Shown piece by piece: positions 14,913 to 60,459 of a DNA stretch of 64,000 nt; positions within the stretch are counted from its first letter, which is position 1, and each line of letters begins with the position of its first letter. Location of the stretch: positions 114,576,001 through 114,640,000 of the forward strand of contig CM097885.1 in the NCBI GenBank assembly GCA_044892525.1, in the 5' to 3' direction. The position numbers and the translations under genes are program-made. A model generated the notes under the pieces. The model made no database searches and was not told the origin of the DNA. It saw only the letters and a list, made by a program, of their open reading frames with translations. This stretch comes from Schmidtea polychroa. Lineage: Eukaryota.

Positions 14913-16140
14913 TGTGAGGAGTTAAAATTAAAATGTTAAATTAAAATTATTTCATGATAAAATTTTGTAAAAATAAATGTGAAACTTAAATTATTTGAAA
15001 TATATTAGAATTAAAATGGTCTAAAATTAAAATGAATATTTAATTTTAATTTTGAAATAAAATAATTTTTAATAAAATTGAAATTCAAGTATGAATGTGG
15101 TATGTTGACATACTAATATTCACAAAGACAGAAAAAGAACACTATTACTTATTTAAAAGAGTTCTAGGGAATATCATAACAGAATTGAAGTTTCTGGGAC
15201 ACATAATAAATAAAGACGGCATACAAACAGATCATACTAAGATAGAAGCAATACAATCATTTTAAAAACCAAAATGTGTAAAAAAAAATCTGAAGAGCTT
15301 TTTGGGTATCTGTAACTGTTATCGACGGTTCATAAAAGACTAAGCTAAGAAGGCAAGAGCACTAGAGAGCATATGCGGAAAAAACAATTAGAAAATAAGA
15401 TGAAAAGGCTTTCGTGGAAATAAAAGAACCATTGGTAACCGCCACAGTATTGGTATTTACAGACTTCAGAAAAGAATTTATATTAGACACAGACGCAAGG
15501 TTCGATACTATTGGAGCAGTTCTTTCGCAAAAGGATAAAAAAGGGACTGCGATGAGGAGCCACGAAAAAGGATACTGTATTACCAGGAAAGAATTATTAC
15601 CAATATACTATTTTTGTAAATATTTCAACCATTACTTATATGGTAAAAGATTCTCACTGAGATTGGAACATAAACCTATTACGTTTATGGTAACAACGAA
15701 GAAACCAATAACTGCTCAATTCCAGACATGGATAAACTATTTAAGCAGTCTGGATATTAAAATGGAATACAAGAAAGGGACAAGTCAAACAAACGCGGAT
15801 ATGTTATCCAGGAAAATTTGCGGAACATGTGTACAGTGTATGATGGAACAAGAAGATCCAAAAACCGGCAAAATTGAAACCAGAATATGAACAGTAACAG
15901 TAAGAAGGCGGAGATAACAAGTGGCAAAATGACAATGTGGAGGTCCAAGAAATAAAAAATAAGTTAGAAAATAAAGATTGTAAATACATGATGGAAAACA
16001 ACACGGTACTAACTAAGCAAGGTAAAATATGGATACCATCAAATAATAGACAGAAGATGATAAAAGAAGTACACGTATTGCTAATTACACGTATACCTGC
16101 CATGCAGGTACACAGAAAGTAAAGAAATATATCCAAAATA
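14913..16140 (+). mobile_element. Ty3/Gypsy remnant: LTR start followed by RT-RNase H-integrase start
   Basis: YVD-ILIF..., FLGHIINKDGIQTD, SFLGICNCYRRFIKD, FILDTDARFDTIGAVLSQ, YCITRKELL, NADMLSR, IKEVH..HAG; several stops and deletions. Confidence 0.9.
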
Positions 16141-18254
16141 ATTTCGACATAGAAAAAAGAGGACCAATCGTATATAAATAATTGCATATATCGGTGTATA
16201 CACCCCAACCAAAATGATATATAATAAAAGTAGAGGACCGATCACCATAAACAAAGATAAAATAATGCGAAAAATCAAAAATATTAAAATCCACGCTTAT
16301 TTAAGAGTAAGGAAAATAAATCAGAGAAATGGACAATTGGCAAATATTGTAGAGAGGACACGAGAACAAAATACTGAGAACCGAGAGAACACATAATAAT
16401 AAATAAAATAATGAATGTCGGGGACGACATTTTGCGAAGACGCGGAGAAAAAATTAGATCAAACTAGGACAACAACAAACTAGGACAACAACAAACGGCA
16501 GATCAAGATGAAAGTCAAAATGGACATGAGGAGTAATAGGAACAATCAGGAAAAATTATACAAGAACATGATTGACGGAAAATGAAGAGCGCACATATAA
16601 CAAAATAAAATGTGAACAAATAAACACAATAAAAATGACAAGGAAACACAAAACGAAATGAACAAACAGGAAACAACAAGTAACAAATTCACAGAAGGAA
16701 GGCAAGGGCAAAGACATTTGAATGAAAAATCAAAACAGCGAGAAAACGACAAATATAAAATAAAACACGATACAATGAAATGGAACAATAAATTGAAAGC
16801 TTAACATCACGACACGGCCAATTAAAATAGCAATAGATGCTAACAAAAATGAGATCAATTAGAAACATTGGAACAAAAGTTTTAGTTATGGAAAACGAAC
16901 ATACTGCCTACTTTTACTATGGAACAAAAAGTTACAATAATGAAAAACGAACGAACTGTCTACTTTTATTACGAAACAAAAAGTTGTAATTGTGGGATTG
17001 AATAAATTCAGAAACGATAAATGCAATAATATCAACCACTCCAGGAACAGCTAGGAAGAAATGCGTATAGATGTAGGTATCCAGATATATGTAGATATGT
17101 GTATATGAATATAGGTGTATGAATAAGGGTATATGTATAAGTATATGCGTACATATGTATAAGTATATATAAACGAACAATAAAATGACGTAATGAACAA
17201 ATAAACAAATAAGCAAGGTTAAGAGCCAAAGTTAAGTAGTATACAGATACGGGAATATGTTAAAACAAAATATATAACGATTTGCACAATATAAAAAAAA
17301 TTAAAGGGAAACGTAAAGAATCAAATTTTGGGAAAACATACAAATATGGAAGCGTGATAAATTACAAAATTGAGCAGGGATGTTTAATAAATAAACCATT
17401 AACGAATAGAAAGGTAACGAATAAAATGGATGAACAAATATTAACGAGTAATGCGAGAGGGATCTGCCTGAGGAAATAGTGAGCATATTAACGAGAAACA
17501 AGTCAATCGAAGCGGTGAGAGTAAAAACGATAGCAATAAAACGTTAACCAGACAAGAGACGTGTATATATTTAGAATAATGAAGAAGGACCAAGAGTAAT
17601 CGAGAAAAGTAGATTAAGAACACGACGTAAAAATGAGAATAGTATTACGAAAATTGATAGCAAATGAATAAGAAAAATTTTTTTTGGGGTTTGAGAAATC
17701 CACAACCTATGAGCTACGCTCAGCGTAGTGCGGATAAGGCACAGGAAAGTACCAACTGTCCTGACGAAAGATGTGGAACAGGGCCCATCGCATATACTGG
17801 AACATCTCTGCGTGTGACTGATCACCACACGATCGGAGATCGACCAGTGCGAGTGTTTCGCATCCAGAGTCAGGAGAGTGGGGAAAACCCGGAAGAGTAG
17901 TAAAAAGAAGCATGCAGGAGAAATAAAAAGAGACCAAGTAAATGGGAAAAGACAGAGCGGAGTAAAGGGAAACAATTAGAGCTTAAAGACTCAATTCATA
18001 AGACAACCGGTAGGCAGAATAATAGAGGACAAAGAGAGTTAAAGGAAAACGAATAATAGATGCGAATAATAGATGCGAATCCGGAGTCAAGGGAATGGGG
18101 AAAACCCGTAAGAGCAGAAGGAAAAAATTTAAAAAAAAACAGGCATGCAGGGGGATAAACGATTAGAAAGTGCACAGTAACTAAAGTAAAGACAACAAAA
18201 ATAGTGAGCCTAGGACAAACAGAGAAATGGAGAATAAAACATGCATGTTAAGGA

Positions 18255-18528
18255 TTATTAAGGCCGAGCTGTTGAAGTGTCCAGCTGGTCAGGAAAATTA
18301 AGACTGCGCTGGGAAGAGTCCAGCCAGTCAGGATATTAAGGCCGAGTTGTGAGAAGTCCAGGTGGTCAGGATTATGAAGATTGAGCTGTTGAAAAGTGCC
18401 AGCCAGTCGTAAAGGCTAAAAATTAAAGTGAGATAGCCTAATAAAGCTAAAAATTAAAGTGAGATAGCCTAATAAAGCTAAAAATTAAAGTGAGATAGCC
18501 TAATAAAGCTAAAAATTAAAGTGATAGC
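18255..18528 (+). repeat. Two adjacent minisatellites: degenerate ~38-bp units (18255-18410) and a 31-bp unit x~3.7 (18412-18528)
   Basis: Units like TAAGGCCGAG(C/T)TGT..AAGTCCAG..GGTCAGGA; then AATTAAAGTGAGATAGCCTAATAAAGCTAAA repeated with period 31. Confidence 0.85.
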
Positions 18529-20089
18529 ATACTAAAACTATAAATCACAGTGAGGTAGAATATTAAAGCTAGCTAAGAGAGGAAATTGAGGAAGAATAAT
18601 TAAAAATTAGATGATAGAATTAGATTATAGAGAAGAATAAACGAGCTCGTGGTAGATGATAATAAAATTTTAGTGAGAAAGAGAAACAAGAAAGGAAAAT
18701 GAATCAAGAGATAGCGAAAATAAAGAATAAGTGAGAATAATTAACAAAAGGAAGAAAATAATTAAATAATTAAAAGGGATCCCAGTGAAGTAGAAAAGGC
18801 TCTACAGAATTTAATTTTTGTGGTTTAAATCGGGAAATGATTTTTTTTTATTGGTTCCAGAGTAGAACCAAGTGAGGGAAACAGATAAGAAAGGATAGGT
18901 AAAATAGCGACAATAGCGCAAGAGAATTAGGAAAAATGAGGAGGGGTAATTAGCAGCAACGGACAACGACCTATTGATATTATAATTGATAATTATAGAT
19001 AATTGATACGACCATATAGATAATTATTACTACCCCACATAGATAATTTAACATCGACGAAAGTTTGGGATTATGGTTCATTACAACCCACGATATAGGA
19101 ATTGTACATCATTTGAAAATGTCGAAGGTATAAACAGATTAGATAATAATTTTTAAGGCTTCGAAAGTAGAAACGGAGAAATTAGAATTTTTAATAAGTC
19201 TGGAAAGCGGAGACCAATGGGATAAGAATTTTGTTTCAGTTGATTGTTTTGAATGCAGAAACGAACGAGTTAGAAATTTGTAAGGTAAAGAGTGGCAGGT
19301 TAACGAATGATAAGATTGGTAAATGTTTGGGTAGATATATAACAGAAAATAAATGAAATCTCAGTAGAAATGACAAGAAATGAATTGATATTAGATAATC
19401 GGGTAAGAGAGAATGAATGAGAATATAAGAAGAATAATAGAAATTCTAGTTAAGAATGAGTTATAGAAATGACAAGGAATGAGTCAAGTGGAGATGAGAG
19501 GCAATACAAGTACAACTGTGAATATAGTTTCAAACTTAAGGAAAGAAACCGTTAAGTAGAACAATGAACTCAGTCAAGAAAAACAGCAACGATAATAATA
19601 GTTAATGAAAGGAGGAAATATAAAGGGTAACCGATATAGTAAACTCAAAGAAATGATTAAACTGGAAACAACCGAGAACAAAACAAGGACCATAGTAATG
19701 AAGAAAAACTAAGAGGTAATACAAGTTAATGGATAGAGATAACAGAGAGAGATAGTCATTCAAAGCCAAGAAAACCATAGAAACGAGGAAAAAGAACACG
19801 AATTAAAATAAATAAGGATCGAGAAAATTAAGTAGAACATGAGAATAAAGGCGAAAACTAAAGGAACGAGGAAACAAATATTAAGAGATGCCCCAGGAAA
19901 CCAAAACAAAAACATTGCAATTATGTTATATAATATATAAATTATAATTTATAAAGATAATAAACGGTAAGGAGGAGTGATATTTTTCTAGTAAGGTAAA
20001 TCAATCAAGCAAGCTAATAGCCAAGTATCAACAATCAACCGGAATTCATCACCAAATAATTAAGCCAATCGATAATAGAACCAAGTATG

Positions 20090-21754
20090 TCAAACGAAGA
20101 AGAAATGAAAGCTGCAAAGAAAGGAAAACGAACAATCAAATCCAAGCAAACGCAAGAGAGTAAAAAGGAGAAATCAAAGCGACATCTTAAAAACGGAAAG
20201 TCGACCCTCAAAATAGAGTGGTAAAAGGAATTTTAAAACAGTCAGTCGAAAAGTTTAAAACGCCAGTGGAACTTCATGAAAGAGAAAATAATATAAAAGC
20301 AGAAATATTGAAAGACCTTGAAACCTAACTAAAGAAAGAAATCAACGACGGAGAGATAATATGGATATATGAGCGAACAAGCTAGCTGAGATGCAAATCA
20401 GATAAGCATTCTTACAAAACTATGCAGTAACATAACCGAGTATCAATCCGAAATGAAAAGAAAGCAAGAATAAATGTACTACAATACGTTGGAAGCAGAT
20501 CACAAATTGAAAACAACCTAACTAAACAACCACAAGAATGGAACAGCTTACAGATCACAGAGGCCCGAGAAGCAGAAGAAAGATGGAGTAGACGAAAGAG
20601 AAGAAGAGAAGAAGAGTATTGGAGGAGGAGAAAGGAAGAACTGTCGAAAGTTGATATATTGAGACTAACTACCAATGACAGCCAGAGGGAAAAGATAGAA
20701 GAAATGTGTGAAAGACGACAAAGAAAAGTAATACAAATCAATATGATGAAAGTGATACCGAGCAACAAACTGGAATCACAAAGAACTCTGGACTCAAGAG
20801 TGGAAAGTGAAACAATCGAAAGAATAGAAAATGTAATATTGGACCATCAAAATATCAGAATCATTGGGAACAATCGGAGAAATTATAAAAATACGGAAAA
20901 TCAGGCTGATATTACAGCAATCCAAGAGAATCGCATGAGATCAGTCAACAGAAGAGATTGCAACAAATCGAAGACTAACGAAGACCACGAAATTCGAAAT
21001 GGTGAAAATAATGAAAACATCGAGACAGAAGAACGAAGAAAAAAAATGATGAAAGTGAGATTGAACCAAATATCAATAATAAAGTAAACCAGTATTGTAA
21101 CGAATGCCAGCAGCGAGGACACAATGAGCGTAATTGTTCTTTGAATATGATAGGTTGGAATTGTCAGAGAATGAGGCATTGCGAAAAGAAATGTCGTCGT
21201 ATAAAAAGGTGTTACGAATGTAAAAGAACAGGACACTTAATTAACACTGTCCGAATGTGGCAAATCCAGAGAAAAATCAATCACGGAGAAGTACCACTGA
21301 ACCGACCAAGCAATACGCACAGAGAAAAGAATTCAACAGTCAGATAGTAGAAATTGTCAACCTCCAATGTTAATAAAACAACAGTCGACAAACGTACGTC
21401 GAAGTGAAGAAACATGTAAAACTCAACGTATCCGAAGAATTGAGAAGACAATGTATAGAACAAGGTGACATAAATAAAGAATTTGTGATGAAAGAAAAGA
21501 GACGGGATGAATTGATAATGATATGGAGACAAGTTGACGAAAGCAAAACAAAAAAAAATGAAGTACTAAAAACAACGATACTCAGACTAAACGAAGAAGC
21601 AAGGTCAACAGAATTAAGAATCAATGAAATAATGAATAATCGAGAGAAATGCAAAGATATGGCAGCAGAGACACAAATGATGATGGCCAAGGAAAAGAAG
21701 AAGGGTAGTGCAAAGAATGAAGTGGAGAGAAGTGTAGATGAGAGTAATATATAA
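20090..21754 (+). pseudogene. Decayed gag/ORF1-like coiled-coil protein with three CCHC-type zinc knuckles (copy 1)
   Basis: CNECQQRGHNERNC, WNCQRMRHCEKKC, CYECKRTGHL at ~21090-21250; charged coiled-coil segments; multiple stops. Confidence 0.65.
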
Positions 21755-22769
21755 GAAGTGTACATATGTAAAAATTGATGTATAAATAGCAAACCAAATG
21801 TATTAGACGTATAGGTATAAATTGATGTATAATGTAGCAAAGGATCGATGTATAAATAATTAAAATAGAAATGGATCAAGTAATCAGTTGGGAAAAAATT
21901 TGAACCCTTACAATGATAAAGGAGAACAGAGGCTCAAATGAGAAGAAAGAATATAAATCCAAAAGAAAGATAAAAGTGCAGACCCGGAAAGAATGAGTTA
22001 AACGAATATCTAAAAGTAATATCTAATTTGGAACCCCTAAACAAAGAACGGTAAAAGACCCTGATAAATGAGACGAAAGTCACAGACCCAGTGACATTGG
22101 AAACTTAATCAAATCAAGCGAACTTGGACTAAAATCAAAAATAATTCGAGTTACCCGTTAAAGAAAGAAAATCCCTTAATAAGAGCAATACCGTAAACAA
22201 AACCACCAAGAAAAACCAAAAGAAAAATCAATGTGTCAAATCACCCAGTTAAACAAAAATTCCGAAGACCCTTGAGCAAGGTCTGTCATATATTATCAAA
22301 TGATCCAGAAAATCAGAATCCCAGCATAAAAATCCAAAGAGAATCCGGGAAAACAGTCAAACCCCGATAGAAAGAATCCTATGATCTTCAGTAAGTATTA
22401 CGAGCTAAATTATGAAAACCAACAACAGCAATCAAACATGCCTACAAAAACCAGCCTAAAGATTGAAAACCGAACCCAGAAACGAGAAGAAACAACCAAC
22501 TGAAGAATTGATCCAGAAATAAAACTGTTGTTTGTGACTTGACTTGAGTTTGGACACGGTATAAGTATGTGTGTGTATTATGACCAGTCACTGTATGTGG
22601 CAACTGCTTGAATTTTAGCTTAGACCCTTTTCTGATAATTCAATTTTAACATGTCTTAAACTGTTATAGTATGTTTATGGGTTAATGGAAATGTAATAGA
22701 CTATGATCTGGGAAATTCATATGTCTAACAGAATTGCGGGACGCAATTTTAACGGGTCCCGGAGTGATT

Positions 22770-24793
22770 TGTTGGGCTAGAACCGAGAATCGAGAGCATG
22801 TTTTAATGAATCAAAAATAAATAACATAAAAATCGCACCAAGTTATATAAAAACACCAAAAACTAAAGTACATAACACACGGATGATAAATAAGACCCGG
22901 TTAATAAAATAAAGGAACGCAAATAAAGGTCACAATCACTAACACCATTAGGAGAAATATCGCATTCGGAATATCTAACAACTAAAAATTAAAATAATAA
23001 TAAATAAAATAATGGGTAATAAATTAATTAATAATATGGAAAACTTTTAAATATATAAATATAAAATTTAAAATAAATTACCTAGTAAACTGGTAAAATA
23101 ATAAAAAGTAGAATAAAAGTAGTAGAATTAGATAAACCATAAAATTTATAAAACTAAATTGTTTAATGAAAACTAAAAATAAAACCAACAAAATTATTTA
23201 AATTAAAAATTTAAATTATAAAACTTATAAAACCAAATTGTTTAAATTAATGAAACTAAAGTAAAATTAACTGAACTTATTTAAATTATAAAACTTGTAA
23301 AACTAAATAAAAATTAGCAAAAACTATTTAAATTATAGAATTTATAAAAATAAATCTTAAAAATTAATAAAAATTAGAATTTTGATTAATTAAATTAATT
23401 AAATTAAAAAATAAATAATTGCACACATTCATGCATGCATGCAAAAATTAATCAGAATCGCCTCGTATTCTAATTGGATATAACAGCAGAGAATGCGTAG
23501 GCGTATAATTCAATCAGTATAAATACTGAGTGAAATTTCATTTAAAAAAAATGGAGAAGTCACGCTCAACTGGTTAACTGAAAATCGCTACAGTAGACAA
23601 TGCAAATCCCATGGCTCTCGATTGTCAGTTTTATGCATGCGTGGTGAGGTAAATTTGATTTTTGTTAATTTTATGTTAATGATTTATATGTTAATTTTAT
23701 GTTAAAATTTATATGAAATAATAGGTAATTTTTAGGATTTAGTAATTGAATTGGTTTGGCTAATTTTGCGTCTGTTCATTTTAATGTTAACTTGGAATAA
23801 TATTTTAATAGGAGTAAGATGAGTTTGATTTTATTAATGACAAATTTATATGATGTAAAATGTAATTTGTAGGATTGAATAAAATTTTTAATTGGATTTG
23901 TTTTTAATTGACTCCGGAGTCTTGTTTATGATACTTTTTGAATAATATTATAATTTAGGTTGGGTTTTTCTTGATATTTATGTGTCGATGGTCTGGGCTG
24001 GGGCAAGGTTTGTGGACGGGCGGCACTACGTGCTGTTGGTCGGCAGATATTTCGCCAGTTGAGTCCATCGGCGTAGGGAATATAGATAGGGATATGAACG
24101 GTTAGGGGGGAATCAATTTTCGATAGTTTAGGGCCCTATTTAGAGTTAGAAAGTATAGGACTTTTATTTTCATAGATATTTCTGAGTTAGGAGAAATATT
24201 AGAATAGTTATGAACTGTTGTCGGTAGAGGAAGTAGGTTTAGGCAATTTTATAGAAACCACGAATAGTTAAGATATTCGATCGTTCAGGATTAGGAATAC
24301 AGGCAGATCCCTGCTCAAATTTTCATGAGAAGTGTGGAAACATGTTTATTAACTTGTGAATAAGGGCCAATCCCTGCTCAAATTTTTCAAAGGATAATTT
24401 AGATATTGTAGGGGGTATATAACAATAATTATTAGATGGACAATAAGGGCGGATCCCTGCGCAAAAATTTTACAAGGGAACAGTTGGAAATACCCTTAAT
24501 TGAGGACCACAAATGATCTAAAACAGCATACATAGTGAATAATGACGTAAGACCTTCTATCGGCAGTCTAGAACCCGAAAAGAAAATACAATGGGGAGTA
24601 GTTTTAGTAATAGAGCTCACCTGCTCATTGTTTTTTCGCCTTTGTGTACAGTACAAACATGGTCGTCACCATGGGTACACAAATGGTTTAAATTGCAATA
24701 GTCATGGAGGTGCTTAGGAAAGAGTCGAGTGAATATCTAAATTACCCCTGACGTATTTAAAATATAAAATGGCACACCCCTAAGTAACCAACA
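22770..24793 (+). repeat. LTR (2024 bp), variant of the 1547-bp LTR
   Basis: TGTTGGGCT start and GTAACCAACA end; last ~500 bp nearly identical to 46610-47118; 5' part diverged and longer. Confidence 0.85.
23473..23529 (+). promoter_or_regulatory. LTR promoter: ATTGG (CCAAT) box and TATA box
   Basis: ATTGG about 40 nt upstream of TCAGTATAAATACTGA; the same spacing is kept in the otherwise diverged LTRs at 46114-46161 and 59455-59502. Confidence 0.6.
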
Positions 24794-27200: not shown

Positions 27201-27480
27201 GTAATTTTTTATTGAATTATTACAAATCTTATTGAATCTGTGTTAGCTAATCCAGGGATTTTAAAATTGACTGTAGATATTAAACTTATTTATTACTTCT
27301 ACCAGAAGATTTCACTTAGAAATAATAGTTTATTTCAGGAACTACGTTGAATACTCATCCGTACTTTTTAGTGACAGTAAATAAATAGATTAAAATTAAA
27401 TAGATTAAAATATTTTTTACCGATGTCTAACAATAAAATAAGATAAACATTACAAGCTTTGTGATACCCAGTGCAAATCC

Positions 27481-27526
27481 CAATAGTAGACTAGTTTCGA
27501 GCTTTTGGCTCTCATCAGTATTATAC
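27481..27526 (-). ncRNA. Minimal type I hammerhead ribozyme
   Basis: Minus strand: ATAATA CTGATGA GAGC CAAAA GCTC GAAA CTAGTC TACTAT. Complete core, 4-bp stem II, palindromic ACUAGU stem III, GUC cleavage triplet (+27489-27491), stem I with 5 of 6 pairs. Confidence 0.85.
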
Positions 27527-28653
27527 AGGAGACGTGAAGATTTCTCTTCGCGCCAGGTAAGTATACAATATTGCTGATTCAACTCTATTGCATACTTTAC
27601 CTGCTACACTGGAAATCACATCACTTGCAAATTCGCTAAATCACAGAATAAAAATATCTGCAAACTTGTAAACATGGCGTATGAAAAATCATATTCGCCT
27701 CTGGAGACACCGTCATATACAGAAACTGTTTACAAGTGCATCCGTAAACCTTTAGCATTTTTAACGGTATTTAATGAAAATGGAAGGATGTTTTTACCTT
27801 TGGAATTGTATAAAATCTGTTTTCCCACTTAGTTGCACAAATATTGTTTAATGTGAAATATTTTTATGTTTGTTTAACTAAATAGATCTAAAACCAAAAT
27901 TTCTATCCAACTAGACAACTCAAAATAACAATAATCATTAACCCCATGCCATCGTGAGACCAGACATAAGATTATTTTGGTTAACCGTATTGAAATGTAT
28001 AATTTGGAGTCACAAATGGAATAAATCATCTAATGAGTACACTTTGACCCTAAACGGAAGTTTTCAATATATACAATTTTTGTGTAGTTCATCCTAAAAA
28101 TCATAACAAGGTGAAGAAAATTAAATGCATTCACAAAAAGTTGAAATGTAATTTGGGATTTTATTGAATTACCTACCAGTTAGAATTTCTGCCTTAAAAT
28201 TAATAGAAATTTGAAAAAAAGATTAAAATAAAAACTGAAAATTATTGTATAGTTATGTGTAATATCGATTCCATGATTCTGTCTTCCAATTGTAAATTAT
28301 GAATTTTGTCATTTTAAGATGTTAGAATATTTATTGTCAATGTTTTTCATTATATTTTATTATTATTTATCAAATGCAAAATAATTAATTATTTAAAATT
28401 TTTAAGAAAGCTCAAACTGTCGAAATATATCGTAAAACGAATGTTCAAGTGGCGCTTTCTTGTAATGAAATTGTTATCATGTCTGTTTAATTATTTATTT
28501 AAAAATCATATTTCATTCTTAATTTCATTTCGAAAAATTATATTTTTATAACACATAAACCTCCCTGAAATTAAAAATTCCGGGTCTTTGTGAAATTTTG
28601 GCATGGAAGAAATAGGACTCTGAAACAAATCGAAAAACGTAATAAAAATAACA

Positions 28654-30962: not shown

Positions 30963-32744
30963 CACGTTGACTGCCATATGCCCCACCCGCAGTACACAGT
31001 ACATTTTTATACATATGCCACGTGTAACGCCGGCGGTACATACATAATACTACTGAATAATCATGTTTTTCTTGTGGCAGTGGGCTTAAACTGTTTATTT
31101 ATATACAGTGGCACCTTGATAAAAGTAAATTAAGGTTTTTTTGTTATGGTTTACATCTACATTTAGAGGTATAGCTGGAACAAAATGGAGAAAAACGAAA
31201 AGATTACAAACATAAAAATTTTATTTCAAACATAAAAATTCATTAATTTGTATTATAAAAATTAACAAAACAAAAGAACTTCGGTATACATATATGAAAT
31301 ATAATAAAATATAATATAAAATAAAAATTAATGTAATTTATTAAAGCAATTTGTGCATAATGGCGGTTATCCTCACATCCACTGCAAAAAGTTGTAACTC
31401 TTGGTTTTTTTGTTGCTTCTTCTCGTCCTTTCTGCTGTTGCAATTGTTTGTAGCATTCAACACACCTTTTACGTATAACTCTATTTCTGTTGTCTCTGGT
31501 GGTATACGTTTGTATTAAATGCCGTCTAGCTGGTGGACGTTGTACTACACGGATACTGACGAAATTGATGTTTCGCAAAGGGATTCACAAATAGATTTTC
31601 TGAATTCAGCTATTTTTATATTTGGTTTACTTAGTTTGTATAAAATAAGCGCGTTTACAACGGCTATACTCAGAAGGTACTCAAATGCTATCTTATGGTA
31701 CCAGCGAATAGTTCTGCGTAAAGGCGTAAAATAGCTAGCCATCTGGTCAGATAAATCGATACCTGATTTGGCAAAATTATAATCAATTATCATTTGAAGC
31801 TTTATGATATCTTCATTGTTGCGATTTGTTTTGCCAGTTCGAACTTCTGTTAAGTCGTGCTTTGTGCTCAACATAAGAACTTCTCGCTTGTCCCTCCATT
31901 TAGCTACTACAATGCCTGAATTCTCTCGACCTATAACTTCATGCTTTCGGAGTTTAGCATTAGTGACTTCAGTAGGATTACCAATTCGGTTTTTCCTAAG
32001 AGTTCCCAGAAGATGAGTTTGCTGTGTTATCAAGGCATTAGCTAACGACCTAGACGTGTAGAAATTATCAGTAACAATAGTTCTACCGTTATTTAGATAA
32101 GGCGCAGCCAGATCGAGTACAATCTGAGTGCTATGTGTAGCACCTGGTGTTGGTCGTCCTCTTCTGGCCGAATCATCTGTTTTTCCGCAATAAATTTCAC
32201 TTGTATAGGTGTACCTAATTGGATCACAAAGCTTGTAAACTTTAACACCATATTTATGTGCTTTTCCGGGATTATATTGACGAAACATCAGTCTTCCACG
32301 CCAAGGTATCATGCTCTCATCCACAACCAACAGCTCACCTGGTATTTTAGCAGCTATAAATTTTTTTTCCAGGAGTTCAAGCAAATAGGCAACTTTACCC
32401 AAACGATAATTTTGTATGGTATCGTCATCTGCAAAATGAATAAATTTCAGCAATAATTGGAATCTATTTCGGGACATCTGTCTAGGAACAAATGAGTTGA
32501 GGTAAAAGTTAAACCTTACTATAACTAATTATGCAATCGATGATAATTAGAGACTGTGAATTATACCACAAAACATTTTTTTTCAAAAATATAAAAAATA
32601 ACCTGTGTACAGCCGGCGGCACACGCGGCACATAATGAAAACGGTATTTACTAGTTGCCGCGTGTACCGCCGGCTGCCACAGTCTATAATGTACTACGGC
32701 ACCGTAAGAATGTAGTATTTATATATATGGTGGCAGTCAACGTG
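30963..32744 (-). mobile_element. piggyBac transposon, internally deleted (1782 bp)
   Basis: 14-bp TIRs CACGTTGACTGCCA / TGGCAGTCAACGTG; flanks TTAA (30959-30962) and TTAT (32745-32748); GCCGGCGG subterminal repeats at both ends. Confidence 0.92.
31327..32477 (-). pseudogene. piggyBac transposase (PGBD4-like), 5'-truncated, C-terminal cysteine-rich domain frameshifted
   Basis: MSRNRFQLLLKFIHF, VVDESM, QYNPGKAHKYGVK, TDNFYTS, GIDLSDQ (all three catalytic Asp); CVEC...CSGC...LCTNCF in shifted frames. Confidence 0.92.
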
Positions 32745-48186: not shown

Positions 48187-51100
48187 TTATTTCCTGTGAC
48201 ATTATTCAACTCACTTGATGAAAATGCGTTCGGCTGTTGCTGCGTGGCTGGTGGCGTTGTCAAATGTTTCTAAAAATTAAACAATGTCATATATTAAAAA
48301 TTCAATCAAATAAATTGTTGAGCAACACGTTTTCGCATCAGCGGTGACATAATGTGTGTAAGTGTGCGAATTTGTGTGACATGACCTGTCACAATTTGTC
48401 ACAACAAGTCCAATTTGTAAATTTTCTCATAGAGTCAATGAGCAGATTTTCGGTTTGATTGAGAGACCACTCAAGAGCGGCGCCAATTTATCTGTCAATC
48501 AAGTAAGCGGTCCGTTTGATGTGTCGATTATAATCGGCAACAGATAAAAACAGATCTGACAATCGTAGTTGGATATTTCTACACACACACGTGTACACAT
48601 ACACACTAGAAGATATTCAGAGATCTCTCACATTCACTGAACGACATATTGAAATGTCGGCCAAGTGCAGGCAGGATGATTGGCATAGTCGAGACAATTA
48701 TATCAAAGAACTGTCGGCTAGTGTTATGTGAACAGCAACACAACCGGAACAGGCTTGCTACTTCGGCGGCTTTCTCAACGAATTTCATTGATTGATTATT
48801 TATGAATCGCAGAGCGGTCGTCGTATTTTGCATTTGGATGATTGCTGTAGTATTCAGACGAAATTGAAATTTTATGAGATTTACAACACGAAAATGGAAT
48901 TTGTTTTTATTGATGTTAACATGTCTATCAATTGGAATAATGATTCGAATATTTACTTTTGAAAATGATGCTGGAAATTTGATTAGTTCTTCGATTCATT
49001 GTAATTTCTCTCGGTTCGTTTCGTTGTTTTTGTCGATGTCGAATAAAACTTTGAGCGACTATCAAATCTTACATGAAACCCCATTAATGAATATTCATTT
49101 GAATTTTTCCCACATCAAATACATCAATGCGTTGATAGTCAGTTTATTTTTCTGATATTCTGGATTTAGGTGTAGTTAGTGAAGGTATGTAATCTCGGTA
49201 ATGTACTCATTTCCCCAAAGCACATTCAATTATCATAAATGAGACATTCATTTAGCTTTGCCAAATAGGCTTTGTTTTGGATTTAGTTAATTTTAAGATT
49301 TTTGTAAAAATAATGAATAAAGAAGTAAGATATTTATTTATTTGTTCTGATGTGCATTGAATTTTTCATGGTTTATCTAAAATATCAAGAATTTAGGGAA
49401 GAATCTTTAATATGATTGTTTATGTGATCGAGTGATGGCCGAGTGCCGGTTGGTGTGTCGGCCTCTGTCGCGACGTGGGTTTGTTCCGGTGGATTGTTTC
49501 TTTATTTTCAAGAGAGCGGCTTGGAATGGTTATATATATTTTTCATTGATTTTGTGGACTTTACTAATTGAATCTTTACTAATTAATGTTTTATAAGTAT
49601 TTTAAAATTCAGTTTTCAATAAAATTATGTATGGCTTTCTATTTTTGATTTAATTAGTTAGGATGAGACGGAGGGTTGTCAGATTTGCATGCATGGAAAA
49701 TGATCATTAATTATGTTATTATGGCATTTTGTACCTGTATATAAATTTATATGCACTTAAATAATTATTGTTAGGCAGTAATGGGATAATCAATGTATTG
49801 CTTTTGTGGGTACAAATAGAGATATTCTTCGTTGCTTAAATTGCATTGGAATGATGAATTAGTAGTTTGTTTTGAGTTTTGTTGTGGAATGATTGTTCTG
49901 ACTCGTGATAATATTTATGTTATAAAACTATGAAATGTGAATTTTTGAACAAATACTGCCAAATTGGTGAATGAATGTAGTGATGGTCTTCGTAGTATGG
50001 AAACTTCTTGGAAGGTACACTGATAGATGAAGAATTAATAGTATGAATGATTATATGCATATGATATATCAGAATGTATGGATTAAAGGGTTTATGAAAA
50101 AGTAAGCTACATATGATTCTGGTATTGAGTTGTCGATACATACAGTATATGATAAGGAATGTTTACACCAATTATGCTCTACCTGTAATACTTTCTACAC
50201 ATACCAAGCCAAGGGTAGAGTACCCAAGGAGGTTGGAAGGCGTCGGTAAAAGGAAAAGATTAAACCCTAAAAACGATCGAATAAACATTCAAATAAAAAA
50301 TATGATAAGACTCGACAGATAACAAAGCACCAAACGATAAATAAAGCAAGTGATAACCATGCCTTAGCTTCTGCAAATGTGAATCTGAGACGAACGACAT
50401 TAAAGATAAAGAGATGAGTTTACCAGACGAAACGGAGCGAATCAACAGATTCTACTGAAAGTAAAAGAAAGTGAAGACATGGAAAGACATCGAAACATCA
50501 CGAATAGAAATAATAACTATATATCATCAACACCTAGAATGAACAAAAGCGTTAAGTAAAAGACCAAAAACAAGAACTAAACTTGTCTGCAAGATAGATG
50601 AAGGGATATAACTCGCTGGTAACTAGAAAAATAAATATGAACCAAAGACAATCGAGAATAACTATTAAAAAAAATAAAACCACAGTATAAAAAGGGAGCA
50701 AAAATAAAACGAAATAAAATCTTCGTGACAAAGACAGTGAAAAACTTTGCAAAATAGGCGAACATCACAGACATCAAGGATATGTCGAAAATGAATTTTA
50801 AAAATTTATGTAGAACGGCTCAGGAAGTTAACAAAGTAAATACAGAAATTAAGGAAAATAACTCCACAAGACACCGGAATAACGTGGTGGATATCGACAA
50901 AGGATCCGGCGAAAGAAACCAAGAAGCCCAAGGTTAGCCAAAGTAATATGAATATACATGACAGTTATACGTACGATGCTCATATTAATAACCGGAATGA
51001 ACTATGAAAAATTTTCTAACGTCAACGATAGAGAATGGGAAACAATTAGAACCAGACGGGTGAAATATACAGTAAATGAAAGAGTACAGAACGCTAAACT

Positions 51101-53849
51101 AAGAACAGCGAAAAGAGATCTAGAGAGTATCACGAATTACGAACCCACATACATAGAAAGGGTTATGACTATATATAGGGTGAACAATGAATATATAAAG
51201 GTATATGATTATATAAAAATATATGTATATATATTAGCGCGGTATGATTAGTATATAACTTCGGGAAGTAAAATGAAATAAAATTCAGATAAAAGATTAG
51301 GAATCAATGTAGGTGAATTGATAGAATGAGACGGATCACATTGGAAATCAATCCCAATACCACCACAGGAGAAATATGGAAGCAGAAAAGCGTCATATTA
51401 TAGTAAATAACATTAGCTATACAGAAGCAAGGAATCTCATGGAGGAACAATCTAATCGAATATTTGAATAATGAATTTGTTCATGAGAGAATAATCAAGG
51501 ATCAGAGAGGAAAAATTGAACTAAAGTAAAGAGAAATGGAACGACTCTAATGATAAAGCCGAATGCAAGAAATGAACTACTAAGAAAACTGAGGAAAACA
51601 AAGAGAGAAAGATATGGTCAGAATGTAACGGAGAATATCAGACGGGAAAAGGAAACGGGAAAACGAAAACGCAGGGAGCTGAAGATGAAGTACAAATAGT
51701 TATAACAAATCCAGCATAGTATTCATTGAAAATTGTTATAAGATGATGAGTAAAATATTCCGAGGGGAGGTGGAATGATCAGAAGAACACCGTATCCGTG
51801 TTTTGCGTAAAGGAGGAAAAACAACGAACTATCAGCAGGGTCATAACATGGAAAAGAGACGGTAATGGCAGAACTGAGTGCCAAAAAGAGGACTAATTGT
51901 ATATAAATAATCGCATATATCGGTGTATACACCCCAACCAAAATGATATATAATAAAAGTAGAGGACCGATCACCATAAACAAAGATAAAATAATGCGAA
52001 AATCAAAAATATTAAAATCTACACTTATTTAAGAGTAAGGAAAATTAATCAGAGAAAATGGACGTTTAGAGAATATGGTAGAGAGGACACGAGAACAAAA
52101 TACTGAGAACCGAGAGAACACATAATAATAAATAAAATAATGAATGTCGGGGACGACATTTTGCGAAGACGCGGAGGAAAAATGAGATCAAACTAGGACA
52201 ACAACAAACGGCAGATCAAGATGAAAGTCAAAATGGACATGAGTAGTAATAGGAACAATCGGGAAAATTATACAAAAACATGATGGACAGAAAATGAAGA
52301 GCGCACATATAACAAAATAGAATGTGAACAAATAAACACAATAAAAATGACAAGGAAAACACAAAACGAAATGAACAAACAGGAAACAACAAGTAACAAA
52401 TTCACAGAAAGAAAGCAAGGGCAAAGAAATTTGAATGAAAAATCAAGATTACGAGAAACAACAAATATAAAATGAAACGCGATACAAAAAAAAAAAAAAT
52501 AGAACAAAAGTGAAAGTTTAACATCATGACACGGAAAATTAAAATAACAAGAGACACTAACAAAAATGAGACCAATTAGAAACATTGAACAAAAGTTTTA
52601 GTTATGGAAAACGAACATACTGCCTACTTTTACTATGGAACAAAAAGTTACAATAATGAAAAACGAACGAACTGTCTACTTTTATTACGAAACAAAAAGT
52701 TGCAATTGTGGGATTGAATAAATTCAGAAACGATAAATGCAATAATATCAACCACTCCAGGATCAGCTAGGGAAAAATGCGTATAGATGTAGATATCCAG
52801 ATATAGGTGGATATATGTATATGAATATATGTTTATGGATAAGGGTATATGTATAAGTATATGCGTGTATATGTAGACATAGATAAACAATTAAATGAGA
52901 TAATGAAAATAAAAGACCAATCAAAGTTACGCGCCAAAAGTAAAATAGCAAATAGACGCGGAAATAAGTAAAAACATAAAATATAGGGAGTGGAACAAAG
53001 AGGCCCATAAACAGGAAAAAAAAAAAAAAACAACAAACAAATTTTGAAAACGTAAAATATACGAAATGAGAAACATTATGACGGGGAAATCAGTGAGAGG
53101 TAACATAAAAAATCAAAGCTGAGGAAAATATACAAATACGGAAGCGTGATAAATTACAAAATTGAGCAGGGATGTTTAATAAATAAACCATTGACTAATA
53201 GAAGGGTAACGAATAAAATGGATAAACAAATATTAACGAGTGATGCGAGAGGGATCTGCCTGAGGAAATAGTGAGCATATTAACGAGAAACAAGTCAACC
53301 GAAGCGGTAAGAGTAAAAGCGATAGCAATAAGACGTTAACTAGACAAGAGATGGGGATATATTTAGAATAATGAAGAAGGACCAAGGGTAATCGAGATAA
53401 GTAGAGTAAGAGCACGACGTAAAAATGAGAATAAAGTCCTACGAAAATTGAGAGCAAATGAATAAGGAAAAAATTTTTCTGTTAGGATTTAGGAAATCCA
53501 CAACCTATGAGCTACGCTCAGCGTAGTACGGATAAGGCCCAGGAAAGTACCAACTGTCCTGACGAAAGATGTGGAACAGGGCCCATCGCATATACTGGAA
53601 CATCTCTGCGTGTGACTGATCACCACACGATCGGAGATCGACCAGTGCGAGTGTTTCACATCCAGAGTCAGGAGAGTGGGGAAAACTTGGAAGAGTAGTA
53701 AAAAGAAGCATGCAGGAGAAATAAAAATGAAGACCAAGTAAATAGAAAAAGACAAAGTGAAGTAAATAGAAACAATTAGAGCTTAAAGACCAAATTGATA
53801 CGATAACCGGTAGGCAGAATAATAGGGGACAAAGATAGTCAAAGGAAAA

Positions 53850-54032
53850 CGAATAATAGATGCGAATAACAGATGCGAATAATAGATACGAATAATAGAT
53901 GCGAATAATAGATGCGAATAATAGATGCGAATAATAGATGCGAATAATAGATGCGAATAATAGATACGAATAATAGATGCGAATAATTGATGCGAATAAT
54001 AGATGTGAATAACAGATGCGAATAATAGATGC
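53850..54032 (+). repeat. 13-bp minisatellite (CGAATAATAGATG) x~14
   Basis: Tandem copies; only about 2 units at the homologous site 18050-18080. Confidence 0.95.
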
Positions 54033-54211
54033 GCATCCAGAGTCAGGAGAGTGGGGAAAACCAGTAAAAGTAGTAAAAAACAGGCATGCAGGGGGATAAA
54101 CGTTTAGAAAGTGCACAGTGACTAAAGTAAAGACAATAAAAATAGTGAGCCTAGGACAAACAGAGAAATGGAGAATAAAACATGCATGTTAGAGGATATT
54201 AAGGCAGAGTT

Positions 54212-54640
54212 GTGAAAAGTCCAACCGGTCAGAGGAGGAAGATTGAGCTGTTGAATAGTGCCAGCCAGTCGTAAGATCGAGTTGTCGAATAGTCCAACCG
54301 GTCAGAGGAGGAAGATTGAGCTGTTGAATAGTGCCAGCCAGTCGTAAGATCGAGTTGTCGAATAGTCCAACCGGTCAGAGGAGGAAGATTGAGCTGTTGA
54401 ATAGTGCCAGCCAGTCGTAAGATCGAGTTGTCGAATAGTCCAACCGGTCAGAAGAGGAAGATTGAGCTGTTGAATATTGCCAGCCAGTCGTAAGATCGAG
54501 TTGTCGAATAGTCCAACCGGTCAGAGGAGGAAGATTGAGCTGTTGAATAGTGCCAGCCAGTCGTAAGATCGAGTTGTGGAATAGCCCAACCGGTCAGGAT
54601 AATGAAGATTGAGCTGTTGAAAAGTGCCAGCCAGTCGTAA
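54212..54640 (+). repeat. 73-bp tandem repeat x~5.8, a dimer of two diverged subunits
   Basis: CCAACC anchors at 54221, 54294, 54367, 54440, 54513 and 54586 (period 73). Confidence 0.95.
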
Positions 54641-56179
54641 AGGCCTAGAAAAATAATGAGATAGCATTTAAGCTAACAGTGAGATAGAATATTAAAGCTA
54701 GCTAGAAACGAATTGAACTTAGATACGAGAATTCGAATTTAGGGAGGATTAAACGAGCTCGTGGAAGGTGATAATAAAAAATTTTTTTTTGTGAGAAAGA
54801 GAAACAGAAAAAGAAAAGGAATTAAGGAGATAATGAAAATAAAGAATAAGTGTGAATAAATGATGAGTAAAAGAGGAAAATAATTAACTAATTAAAGGGG
54901 ATCCCAGGTAGGTAGACAAAGTTCTACAGAATTTTTTTTTTGGTTGAAACCGGTTAAACGAATTTGTTTTTGGTTCCAGAGTAGAACCGAGTAAAGAGTA
55001 ACAGGTGAATTAGATATAAAAGGATAAGTAAAATGGCGAAATTGCGCAAGAGTATACTAGAAAAATGAGGAGGGGTAATTAGCAGCAATGGACAACGACC
55101 CATCGATATTATAATTGATAAATATAGATAATTCATACGACCATATAGATAATTATTACTACCCCACATAGATAATTTAACATCGACGAAAGTTTGGGAT
55201 TATGGTTCATTACAACCCACGATATAGGAATGGTACACCATTTGAAAATTTCGAGGGTATAAACAGACTAGATAATAATTTTTAAGGCTTCGAAAGTAGA
55301 AACGGAGAAATTAGAATTTTAATAAGTCTGGAAAGCGGAGACCAATGGGATAAGAATTTTGTTCCAGTTGATTGTTTTGAATGCAGAAACGAACGAGTTA
55401 GAAATTTGTAAGGTAAAGAGGGGCGAGTTAAGGAATGGTAAGATTGGTAAATTTTGATATCTCAGTAGAAATGACAAGAAATGAATTGATATTAGATAAT
55501 CGGGTAAAAGAGAATGAATGAGAATATAAGGAGAATAATGGAAATTTTAGTTAAGAATGAGTTATAGAAATGACAAGGAATGAGTCAAGTACAGATGAGA
55601 GGCAATACAAGTACAACTGTGAATACAGTTTCAAACTTAAGGAGAGAAACCGTTAAGTAGAACAATGAACTAAATCAGGAAAAACAGCAACAATAATAAT
55701 AGTTAATGAAAGGAGGAAATATAAGGGTAACCGCTATAGTAAACTCAAGAAATGATTAAAACTGGAAACAACCGAGAACAGAACAAGGACCATAGTAATG
55801 AAGAAAAAACTAAGAGGTAATACCAGTTAATAGATAGAGATAGCAGAAAAGGATAGTCATTCAAAGCCAAGAAAACCATAGAAACGAGGAAAAAGAACAC
55901 GAATTAAAATAAATAAGGATCGCGAAAATTAAGTAGAACATGAGAATAAAGCTGTAAACTAAGGGAACGAGGGAACAAATATTAAGAAATGCCCAGGGAA
56001 ACCAAAATAAAAACATTGCAACTATGTTATATGATATATATAAATTATAATTTATAAAGATAATAAACGGTAAGGAGGAGGGATATTTTCCTAGTAAGGT
56101 AAATCAATCAATCAAGATAACAGCCAAGTATCAACAACCAACCAGAATTCATCAACAAATCATTAAGGCAATCGATAAT

Positions 56180-57850
56180 AGAACCAAGTGTGTCAAACGA
56201 AGAAGAAATAAGAGCTGCAAAGAAAGGAAAACGAACAATCAAATCCAAGCAAGCGCAAGAGAGTGAAAAGGAGAAATCAAAGCGACATCTCAAAAACGGA
56301 AAGTCGACCCTCAAAAGAGAGTGGTAAAAGGAATTTCAAAACAGTCAGTCGAGAAGTGTAAAACGCCAATGGAACTCCATGAAAGAGAAAATAATGTAAC
56401 AGCAGAAATAGCAAAAGACACTGAAACCTAACTAAAGAAAGAAATCAACGACGGAGAGATAATATGGATATATGAGCGAACAAGCTAGCTGAGATGCAAA
56501 ATCAGACAACCATCCTTACAAAACTATGCAGTAACATAATCGAGTATCAATCTGAAATAGAAAGAAAGCAACCTCCAAGAATAAATGTATTACAATACGT
56601 TGGAAGCAGATCACAAATTGAAGTCAACCCAACTAAACTACAACAAGGATGAAAACACCGTACAGATCACAAAGGCACGAGAAGCAGAAGAAAGATGGAG
56701 TAGACGAAAAGAACTTCAGGCAAAAAGAGAAGAAGAGTATTGGAGGAGAAAGGAAGAACTGTTGAGAGTTGATATCATGAGACTAACCACCAATGACAGC
56801 CAGAGGGAAAAGATAGAAGAAATGTGTGAAAGATAACAAAGAAAAGTAATACAAATCAATATGATGAAAGTGGTACCGAGCAACAAACGGGAATTACAAA
56901 GAACTCTGGACTCAAGAGTGGAAAGTGAAACAATCGAAAGAATAGAAAATGTAACATTGGACCATCAAAATATCAGAATCATTGGGAACAATCGGAGAAA
57001 TTATAAAAATACGGAAAATTAGGCTGATATTACAGCAATCCAAGAGAATCGCATGAGAGCAGTCAACAGAAGATATTGCCACAAATCGAAGACTAACGAA
57101 GACCATGAAAATCGAAATGGTGAAAATAATGAAAACATCGAGACAGAAAAACGAGAAAAATGATATAGGCGAGATTGAACCAAATATCAATAATAAAGTA
57201 AACTAGTATTGTAACCAATGCCAGCAGCGAGGACACAATGAGCGTAATTGTTCTTTGAATATGATGGGTTGGAATTGTCAGAGAATGAGGCATTGCGAAA
57301 AGAAAAATCGCCGCATAAAAAGGTGCTACGAATGTAAATGAAAAGGACATGCAATTAACAACTGTCCGAATGTGACAAATCCAGAGGAAAATCAATCACG
57401 GAGAAGTACCGCAGAACCAACCAAGAAATACGCACTGAGAAAAGAATTCAACAGTCAGATAGTAGAAATTGTCAACTTCCAATGTTAATAAAACAACAGT
57501 CGACAGTCGTACGTCGAAGTGAAGAAACATGCAAAACTCAACGTATCCGAAGAATTGAGAAGACAATGTATAGAACAAGGTGACATAATAAAAGAATTTG
57601 TGATGGAAGAAAAGAGACGGGATGAATTGATAATGATATGGAGACAAGTTGCCGAAAGCAAAACAAAAAAAAAAAAAAAAAAAAAAAAAAAGAAAATGAA
57701 GTACTTAAGACAACGATACTCAGACTAAAAGAAGAAGCCAGGTCGGCCGAATTAAGAATCAATGAAATAACGGGTAATTGAGAAAAATGCAAAGATATGG
57801 CAGAAGAGACACAAATGATGACGGCCAAGGAAAAGAATAAGGGTAGTCCA
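56180..57850 (+). pseudogene. Decayed CCHC zinc-knuckle gag/ORF1-like region (copy 2)
   Basis: CNQCQQRGHNERNC and CYECK*KGHAINNC at ~57210-57365; homologous to 20090-21754. Confidence 0.65.
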
Positions 57851-58912
57851 AAGGATGAAGTGGAAATTAAAGAGGAAGTGTAGATGAAAATAGTAAGAAA
57901 GAAATGAACATATGTAAAAATTGATGTATAAATAGCAAATTAAATGTACTAGATGTATAGGTATAAATGGATGTATAATGTGGCAAAAGATCGATGTATA
58001 AATAGAAATGGATCAAGTAATCAGTTGGAAAAATACTAAATTTGAACCCTTACAATGGTAAAGGAGAACAGAGGCTCAAATGAGAAGAAAGAATATAAAT
58101 CCAGAAGAAAGATAAAAGTGCAAACCCAGAAAGAATGAGTTAAACGAATATCGAAAAGTAATATCTAATTTGGAACCCAAAACTAAGGAGAACGGTAAAA
58201 GATCCTGATAAATGAGACGAAAGTCACAGCCCCAGTGACATTGGAAAGTTAGTCAAATAAAGCTAACTAAGACCCAGATCGAAGATAATTTGAGTTACCC
58301 ATTGGAGAAAGAAAATCCCTTAATAAGAGCAATACCGTAAACAAAACCACCAAAGAAAACCAAAAGAAGAATCAATGTGTCAAATCACCTAGTTAAACAA
58401 AAGTTCCGAAGACCCTTGAGCAAGGTCTGTCATATACCATCAAATGATCCAGAAAATCAGAATCCCAGCCTAAAAATCCAAAGGGAATCCGGGAAAACAG
58501 TCAAACCCCGATAGGAAGAATCCTATGATCTTCGGTAAGTATTACGAGCTAATTATGAAAATCAACAACAGGAGTCAAACATGCCTACAAAACCCAGCCG
58601 AAAGATTGAAAACCGAACCCAGAAACGAGAAGAAACAACCAACTGAAGAATTGATCCAGAAATAAAACTGTTGCATGTGACTTGACTTGAGTTTGGACAC
58701 GGTATAAGTATGTATGTGTATTATGACCAGTCACTGTACGTGACAACTGCTTGAATTTTAGCTTAGATCTTTTTCTGATAATTCAATTTTAACATGTCTT
58801 AAACTGTTATAGTATGTTTATGGGTTAATGGAAATGTAATAGACTATGATCTGGGAAATTCATATGTCTAACAGAATTGCGGGACGCAATTTTAACGGGT
58901 CCCGGAGTGATT

Positions 58913-60459
58913 TGTTGGGCTGAAAACGAGAACTGAGAGTTTGTTTTAATCGATCGAAAATACCTAACACAAAAACCACAAATTTGAAAATAATCTATGA
59001 TCAAGATCTAATTTAAAATAAATGAAATAAATTACATCACACATTAAGAACCAATAAACCCTGTATAATAGAATAAGAGATAAATAAATTTAACAAAAAA
59101 TTCAACACTTAAAAATTTAAATAGAAAAATAATATAATATATAATAGAATTAGTTGAAAATTATTTAAACAATATAAAAATAAAATCGTCAAAAATAATA
59201 AAATTAGTTAGCATTATATAAATTGTAAAGTTTATAGAATTAAATGGTTATTTAACTTATTAAATTTAAAGAATAAAAATGTTTAAATTAATAAAAATTA
59301 ATATAACTCAAATTATTTAAATTATAAAATTTATAAAATTAAAATTAATAAAAATTAAATAAGAAATTAATTAAATTTAGTGAATTAAAACAAATAAACA
59401 ATTGCACACACTCATGCATGTATGCAAGACTAATTCAGAATTTCTCGCACTCTGATTGGATAGAGTGGCAGCAAATGCATGAAAAATCAGTATAAATACT
59501 GATCACAAATTCATTTAAAACTACTACTTTTTCTCTAACATCAAAATTTAGTTGTAGCCAGTGAAGCTCTCAGTTTTCGATTTTATGCCCACGTGGATTT
59601 GGTAATTTATTTTTTATTGTTGTAGTAATTTTATGAGATGATTAAATTTAATATGCAATAAAATTTTTAGTTAAATTTTCTTTTGTTATTTTCTTTTAAT
59701 TGTTTAATTTCATTTAGTTGCAGATATTAAATAACATTTTTTATTGTGTTCAATTTTTATACTAACTGATTACGAACGTTAGTACCGCTGAATTGAGATT
59801 CAGCATATCATGGTTTGAGGTACCTTCGGGATGCTCAGACTGGTGGGTATGCTGGTTTTTCAATCGCGCAGCTGGATTGGGCCGGAATGTGGGGGCTTCC
59901 TCACGGGTCCTATCGCTGGAAGTACTGTGGTCAAATGTAGGTTAGGACTGAGAATACAGGCAGATCCCTGCTCAAATTTTTTGAAGTATAACGTAAATAT
60001 TATGGGAAGCGTGGATTAACTTGAAAATAAGGGCCAATCCCTGCTCAAATTTTTCAAAGGATAATTTAGATATTGTAGGAAGTGTAGAACAATAATTATT
60101 AGCTGGAAAATAAGGGCGGATCCCTGCACAAAATTTTATAAGAGAACAATTAGAAATACCCGTAATTGAGGACCAACAACGATTCAAAAATAGCATACAC
60201 AGTGAATAATGACGTAAGACCTTCTATCGGCAGTCTAGAACCCGAAAAGAAAATACAATGGGGAGTAGTTTTAGTAATAGAGCTCACCTGCTCATTGTTT
60301 TTTCGCCTTTGTGTACAGTACCAACATGGTCGTCACCATGGGTACACAAATGGTTTAAATTTTAATAGTCATGGAGGTGCTTAGGAAAGAGTCGAACGAT
60401 TATGATTACCCCTAACGCATTTTAAAATGTAAAAATGATACACCCCTAAGTAACCAACA
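58913..60459 (+). repeat. 3' LTR
   Basis: Direct repeat of 45572-47118. Confidence 0.95.

Follow-up and report, generated by a model that had tools for sequence, protein, structure and literature searches.

The window, by which we mean the whole 64,000-nt stretch of DNA analysed here, contains on its minus strand one copy of a 372-bp hammerhead-ribozyme repeat of a known kind, likely a non-LTR retrozyme. The following features, listed from the full unit and then in 5' to 3' order, were delimited:

27394..27765, minus strand: complete 372-bp unit of the retrozyme family; copies are 91-98% identical, and the 3' edge is uncertain by ~5 nt
27606..27620, minus strand: upstream strand of helix A, predicted to pair with 27474-27460
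27586..27603, minus strand: 5' arm of hairpin B, complementary to the U1-like strand (hairpin z -5.2)
27521..27600, minus strand: putative intron-like GU...AG interval of 80 nt, ending inside helix I; mostly AG at its end in the family, AA in this copy
27554..27570, minus strand: 3' arm of hairpin B, including U1 nt 1-11 (pairing probability 0.98-1.0)
27546..27564, minus strand: U1-like segment, matching 16/16 with the host U1 genes L031, L033 and L036 and 18/19 with the array U1 gene L041
27532..27553, minus strand: hairpin C with a GAAA tetraloop, from the fold; its 5' arm is U1-like nt 12-19
27483..27524, minus strand: predicted type I hammerhead with a 6-bp helix I, CUGAUGA core, 4-bp helix II and 2-bp helix III
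27460..27474, minus strand: downstream strand of helix A in the predicted fold, previously read as a 'U1A loop'

Elsewhere, the window encodes a 327-aa transposase frame with a PF13843 domain (31545-32528, minus strand), which we take to be piggyBac-like, and a 428-aa frame with a WW domain near its start (61654-62940, plus strand), which presumably resembles CEP164. Two long stretches (16000-24000 and 50000-60000) show similar strong AT and GC skew and are probably related large repeats. A search with Rfam over the whole window identified nothing at cut-off.

The hammerhead repeat family

The host genome is AT-rich and comprises 781 Mb, with four large contigs. A genome search with a 141-nt stretch as query returned full-length copies with 96-98% identity, and alignment of 60 loci set the unit bounds at 27765 and ~27394; counted from the former, the U1-like segment falls at unit position 202. 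A 20-mer near the unit 3' end has 1,318 exact matches genome-wide and the U1-like 19-mer has 989, with no matches for the reversed control of either. The repeat family is dispersed in more than 1,000 genomic copies, and these, together with their insertion structure, support the mobile hammerhead element proposed in a preliminary description of this DNA. The unit has a GC content of 34% and lacks coding capacity. Sampling of copies drew on 90 regions surrounding the 100 places at the head of the list of 1,318; all of these regions lie in the first 56 Mb of contig C1, where 97 motif matches were reduced to 95 by removal of two identical contexts. Their insertion structure is characterised by partial head-to-tail tandems (periods of 348-383 bp and at most three units), frequent 5' truncation and inverted 5' pieces. 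The 3' ends cluster at unit positions 320-339 (55/95), and AAT/AT runs adjoin 35 of 83 terminal 3' ends compared with 27 of 600 background windows. Such a pattern likely marks a non-LTR retrozyme mobilised by Penelope-like elements. An excess of 5' ends starting exactly at the cleavage site was not found, as the four of 95 ends at unit positions 274-281 are indistinguishable from background; two copies (L053 and L066) start exactly at position 278. Downstream of another copy, a weak Rfam match to mir-753 (L094:1240-1321, minus strand; 33.5 bits vs 62) is probably microsatellite-derived.

The hammerhead that had been placed on the minus strand is borne out by a type I core at 27524-27483, with the palindrome ACUAGU in helix III and predicted cleavage after 27489, though its scores stay below the Rfam cut-offs: 20.9 bits for HH9 at 27533-27469 in the window copy (cut-off 52, E 0.069) and 27.4 bits for Hammerhead_1 in a better copy (cut-off 34). 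A strictly intact ribozyme is encoded by 23 of 78 copies. Helix I of the window copy contains a mismatch (A at 27521, where 64 of 78 copies have G), so this copy is probably decayed. Canonical type I hammerheads of animals are said, in the available part of PMC4209133, to act as dimers. Thirteen natural monomers measured between adjacent cleavage sites are 348-383 nt long. The earlier layout had overlooked the 372-bp unit as well as the complementary arm upstream. In a different repeat family, a 480-bp inverted repeat (L384:1076-1555) has a minimal hammerhead-like core in both of its arms.

Other families combining U1 and hammerhead sequence at longer spacing were not found in this genome, where five matches comprised four insertion variants of the present family and one unrelated sequence. 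Pattern scans of metagenome and viral sequences yielded at least 120 and 61 matches, respectively; a loose stem filter passed seven of the 181 listed, which by eye are not hammerheads and of which none is like the element.

The U1-like segment and its conservation

The U1 14-mer previously recognised at 27564-27551 is present on the minus strand, and alignment with the U1 genes of the host extends the match past the common U1 end into host-specific sequence, to 16 of 16 and 18 of 19 positions. In each comparison with a host U1 the match outscores all 200 shuffles, and the chance of the 16-mer is ~3e-8 per unit. Even when nt 1-11 are attributed to complementarity with a perfect splice donor, the chance of the remaining 5-8 nt is ~1e-3 to 2e-4, and the letters past the donor complement match the host U1 where it differs from the Rfam U1 consensus. 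Judged by these sequence comparisons, the U1 match exceeds chance. Two contrary findings had been named beforehand, loss of the 14-mer from other copies of the element and a host U1 of different sequence, and neither was encountered.

Among the 95 unselected copies, 63 reach the U1-like segment, which is exact in 33, has at most one mismatch in 49 and at most two in 56; the other seven carry decayed remnants of it. The expectation that the U1 head and the hammerhead co-occur with shared boundaries holds for their joint occurrence, as these 56 of 63 copies indicate, but the copies do not begin at U1 +1. Since 201 nt of the element lie upstream of the match, it is not a U1-headed RNA, and with one of 95 copies starting at unit positions 199-205 the proposal of the segment as an RNA 5' end or SINE-like head is not supported. 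Beyond these 16-19 nt, the rest of U1 does not align with the element. Compared with U1 snRNA (RF00003), whose first 16-19 nt it shares, the element lacks the stem-loop I loop, a free stem-loop II loop, an Sm site and a match to the Rfam model; the set of stem-loops I-IV is not present, in agreement with the earlier judgement that this is not a normal U1 gene. Free chimeras of U1 5' fragments were likewise absent among the 100 matches listed of 272, in which the 16 outside the U1 array consist of four U1 genes and 12 element copies.

The host has several U1 variants. At least six divergent ones (L031-L040), with 5' ends AUAC or AAAC, are clustered with U5 genes; one of them contains an altered splice-site-pairing letter, and their upstream promoter sequence is hardly common between genes. 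Furthermore, a large tandem array with a period of ~1.77 kb extends from G000:C4:74003798 onward (L041, L410-L423), each unit containing a U5-like gene along with two U1 variants that differ from one another; 253 reverse-strand pattern matches suggest more than 200 units.

Within the family, type I and type II units (62 vs 12) differ in 42 columns, of which 26 lie in unit positions 1-142, five in 143-201 and 11 in the gap-rich tail, and unit positions 202-312 contain no subfamily difference. A relative was identified in contigs of organism B, derived from three runs of one study and guessed to be RNA, with a consensus agreement of 0.5-0.9 at their loose ends. It contains GUA at the cleavage site, an altered loop 2 and an altered 3' arm of hairpin C, and no difference is listed at 27538-27568; letters from loose ends show differences in the head at +2 and +16, and in some cases at +9. 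Contig depth drops three- to tenfold at 27562, matching ends at 27559-27573 in 15 of the 24 listed pieces, eight of these 15 continue for at least 34 nt in unlike upstream sequence, the consensus of which can still be read as a hairpin, and four of the 24 end at 27544-27545, short of the U1 strand. The organism B sequences suggest sequence-level retention of the U1 core alongside drift in the flanking letters.

Predicted folding of the unit

Folded alone, the reported stretch is no better than its shuffles (z -0.26). Whole monomers folded as circles beat their shuffles in 13 of 13 cases (z -3.7 to -10.8, 40 shuffles each), and when 15 copies are folded as an alignment, the four-way layout of the whole-unit fold is recovered, with two-sided changes in 0 of 56 pairs, so that the core is without covariation support inside this genome. 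Hairpin B is predicted to comprise 17 bp, with U1 nt 1-11 forming its outer 3' strand, and its 5' arm opens with the donor-like CAG/GUAAAG in 42 of 78 copies, GU being replaced by GG in 28 of 78. In the outer hairpin, the three changes between subfamilies are all confined to the partner strand, and one of them abolishes the GU; as evidence, three out of three is weak.

The GAAGA-GAAA-UCUUC hairpin of the preliminary description was recovered at 27549-27536 with pair probabilities of 0.96-1.0. For the last hairpin (27483-27459) the letters had been given correctly, but all seven pairs of its stem have a probability of 0.0 in the whole-unit fold. Its loop, compared earlier with the U1A-binding loop, is instead paired with 27620-27606 in the predicted fold, and both the whole-unit and alignment folds rule out a U1A-loop hairpin. 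The suggestion of free pairing with host 5' splice sites also fares poorly, the U1 strand being predicted to be ~100% paired in cis.

Origin of the U1-like segment and relation to known elements

Unit size, GC content and ribozyme type fit retrozymes as described in the available parts of PMC7229834 and bioRxiv 10.64898/2026.07.22.740005. Non-LTR retrozymes are delimited as non-coding tandem units of 150-450 bp with a GC content < 50%, limits within which the present unit falls. With the metazoan representatives (newt satellite 2, mussel, coral and axolotl), as far as the available text of PMC7229834 describes them, the family shares a ~370-bp unit of low GC, a type I hammerhead whose helix III is short and palindromic, an arrangement from monomers to short tandems, a strongly self-paired predicted circle, the lack of an ORF and the presence of Penelope-like elements in the genome. 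It differs in its internal U1-identical segment, which that text does not mention, and in its mostly dispersed, truncated copies with inversions; its cleavage and circles are predicted. The insertion features match descriptions of Penelope-like elements in the portion of PMC8557442 at hand. Partial tandems, inverted 5'-truncated pieces, microsatellite targets, a hammerhead and an intron-like interval reaching helix I are shared with Penelope pseudo-LTRs (pLTRs) as portrayed in the available parts of PMC4209133, PMC8557442 and bioRxiv 10.64898/2026.07.22.740005; in contrast to these, most copies here lack a linked ORF, the hammerhead is canonical rather than minimal, and the unit is not homologous to the pLTR in the single family compared. 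The schistosome Sm-alpha/Sj-alpha SINE-like elements are likewise high-copy invertebrate hammerhead repeats, for which the accessible text of PMC2770079 and PMC2220036 reports a pol III promoter. Crocodilian SINEU (Kojima 2015, PMC4494074) shares with the present family its nature as a non-autonomous retroelement containing U1-derived sequence. According to the available part of that paper, SINEU bears U1/U2 at its 5' terminus, is moved by Tx1 and is described without a hammerhead, its U1 sequence was probably added by template switch, and no snRNA promoter was found; the U1 piece here is 16-19 nt long, internal and predicted to be base-paired. No published hammerhead element with U1 sequence was found in a search that covered few subscription papers. 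The element class is known, and the U1 segment is apparently new.

A Penelope-like family with intact 856-aa frames comprising a reverse transcriptase (RT) together with a GIY-YIG domain at the C terminus (L384:1736-5195 and relatives) is very young and abundant in the host genome (at least 150 copies of 97-98% identity) and terminates at AAT/ATT runs in each of 25 loci, in a window slightly wider than that used for the retrozyme. Its pLTR measures 280-310 bp and its targets are AAT. One retrozyme copy (L059/L391) directly adjoins a truncated GIY-YIG element of this family, at the inverted 5' piece of the latter; this retrozyme-Penelope junction (L391:3597-5555) lies between AAT runs and could reflect insertion at an existing copy or co-integration. 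A motif search detected no hammerhead in the pLTR of the 856-aa family, and comparison of this one family with the unit identified no common tail or ribozyme, so it stays a candidate partner only.

We consider the locus likely to be a non-LTR retrozyme copied by a Penelope-like RT, with a likely captured U1 5' fragment in a predicted hairpin, and assign this reading as a whole a probability of roughly 0.55. Cleavage, circles, partner, capture and masking are parts of it that we infer, as follows. Tandem units would be transcribed, and paired hammerheads would cut out a ~370-nt monomer, which is probably circularised. In one run of organism A, a contig joins the unit end to the unit start, which fits a tandem and a circle equally. 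A Penelope-like RT/GIY-YIG protein would prime from AT-rich microsatellites at AU-rich spots of the RNA and insert cDNA that is truncated, inverted or partly in tandem. An ancestral copy probably acquired the U1 piece by template switch onto U1 RNA, by analogy with SINEU, and we regard U1 capture as a quite probable source of the segment. Paired with each other, the U1 strand and its upstream complement would close an arm of the four-way junction that lies at the ribozyme's base. As the complement is donor-like, this pairing would hide that strand from real U1 and prevent splicing of the 80 nt before helix I; the captured U1 5' fragment may thus, in terms of the model, form a stem masking the element's own donor-like site. 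With about a third of the copies having lost the donor GU, masking cannot be relevant to all subfamilies. That the U1 end is retained as a constrained decoy masking the element's own donor, or as the marker of an snRNA-type start, appears unlikely.

A possible but rather unlikely reading dispenses with U1 ancestry and derives the unit from a Penelope-type pseudo-LTR whose short intron ended at the ribozyme. A fold-back copy of the splice donor, necessarily similar to U1 nt 1-11, would have been retained as a hairpin, and the following 5-8 letters would agree with U1 by chance. Any donor complement resembles U1, and ancestry could therefore run the opposite way. The 80-nt interval, running from the donor GU at 27600 to the AG position at 27521 in helix I, would accommodate such an intron; the stem continues for 6 bp beyond U1 +1 into non-U1 letters, 5' inversions that make fold-backs are frequent in the family, and the U1 strand contains, 37 nt before the AG, a motif that we take to be branch-point-like. 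In Drosophila virilis Penelope, the 75-bp pLTR intron likewise runs up to the 5' end of helix I, according to the available text of PMC4209133 and PMC8557442. Against an origin without U1, however, the U1 strand is perfect, whereas it is the donor strand that has an extra A and the frequent loss of GU; a coincidence of ~1e-3 is demanded, and donor-likeness and the pyrimidine run would be an automatic result of base pairing. Spliced copies with the 80 nt removed are absent genome-wide, among 98 anchored copies (0/98) and, as a joint, from four contig sets, an absence that carries little weight because Penelope-like elements retain introns.

U1 +1 might instead be a true start, with the upstream 200 nt acting as an snRNA-type promoter and a capped precursor trimmed by the ribozyme. 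Newt satellite II provides a precedent for an snRNA-type promoter (PMC2220036, citing Coats 1994, in the part available), the similarity to organism B stops near +1, and host snRNA promoters are so barely alike that one could escape comparison. The scarcity of 5' ends at unit positions 199-205 speaks against this reading, as do the upstream region, which looks like paired RNA in sequence and differs between subfamilies in a compensatory manner, and the +2 letter of organism B, which is unlike that of all host U1 genes examined. The region from -85 to -50 moreover shows no significant likeness to the corresponding regions of 12 host U1/U5 genes; the lowest p was 0.052 and none of 48 comparisons reached p < 0.05, in a comparison of low power because the host U1/U5 upstream regions hardly resemble each other. 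The borrowed snRNA promoter envisaged earlier therefore finds no backing here, and we judge a true start at U1 +1 very unlikely. A promoter look-alike at -79 to -61, seen by eye against L033/L036, is not significant and is missing from one subfamily. Highly improbable, in our estimate, is a trans-acting U1 mimic whose hairpin B opens and pairs with host 5' splice sites, directing itself to nascent transcripts or altering splicing. Such a role would draw on the splice-site-pairing sequence being present in ~1,000 exact copies and retained at the sequence level in organism B, and if the upstream arm is missing, the U1 strand can pair alternatively with the strand of helix A. In monomers, however, its predicted pairing probability is ~1, and the RNA has neither Sm site nor stem-loop I nor a free U1A loop.

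On the preferred reading of a Penelope-copied retrozyme with a captured U1 fragment, the family represents an invertebrate case of retrozyme insertions with the full Penelope signature. If the U1 segment is functional, it bears on how Penelope-type RNAs escape intron loss and on the transcription of animal retrozymes; if it is a mere stem relic, it would be a modest curiosity. A decoy that masks the donor would constitute a cis mechanism for Penelope-style intron retention, protecting the ribozyme. As the 370-nt RNA has defined pairing partners, both questions are testable by a few point mutants.
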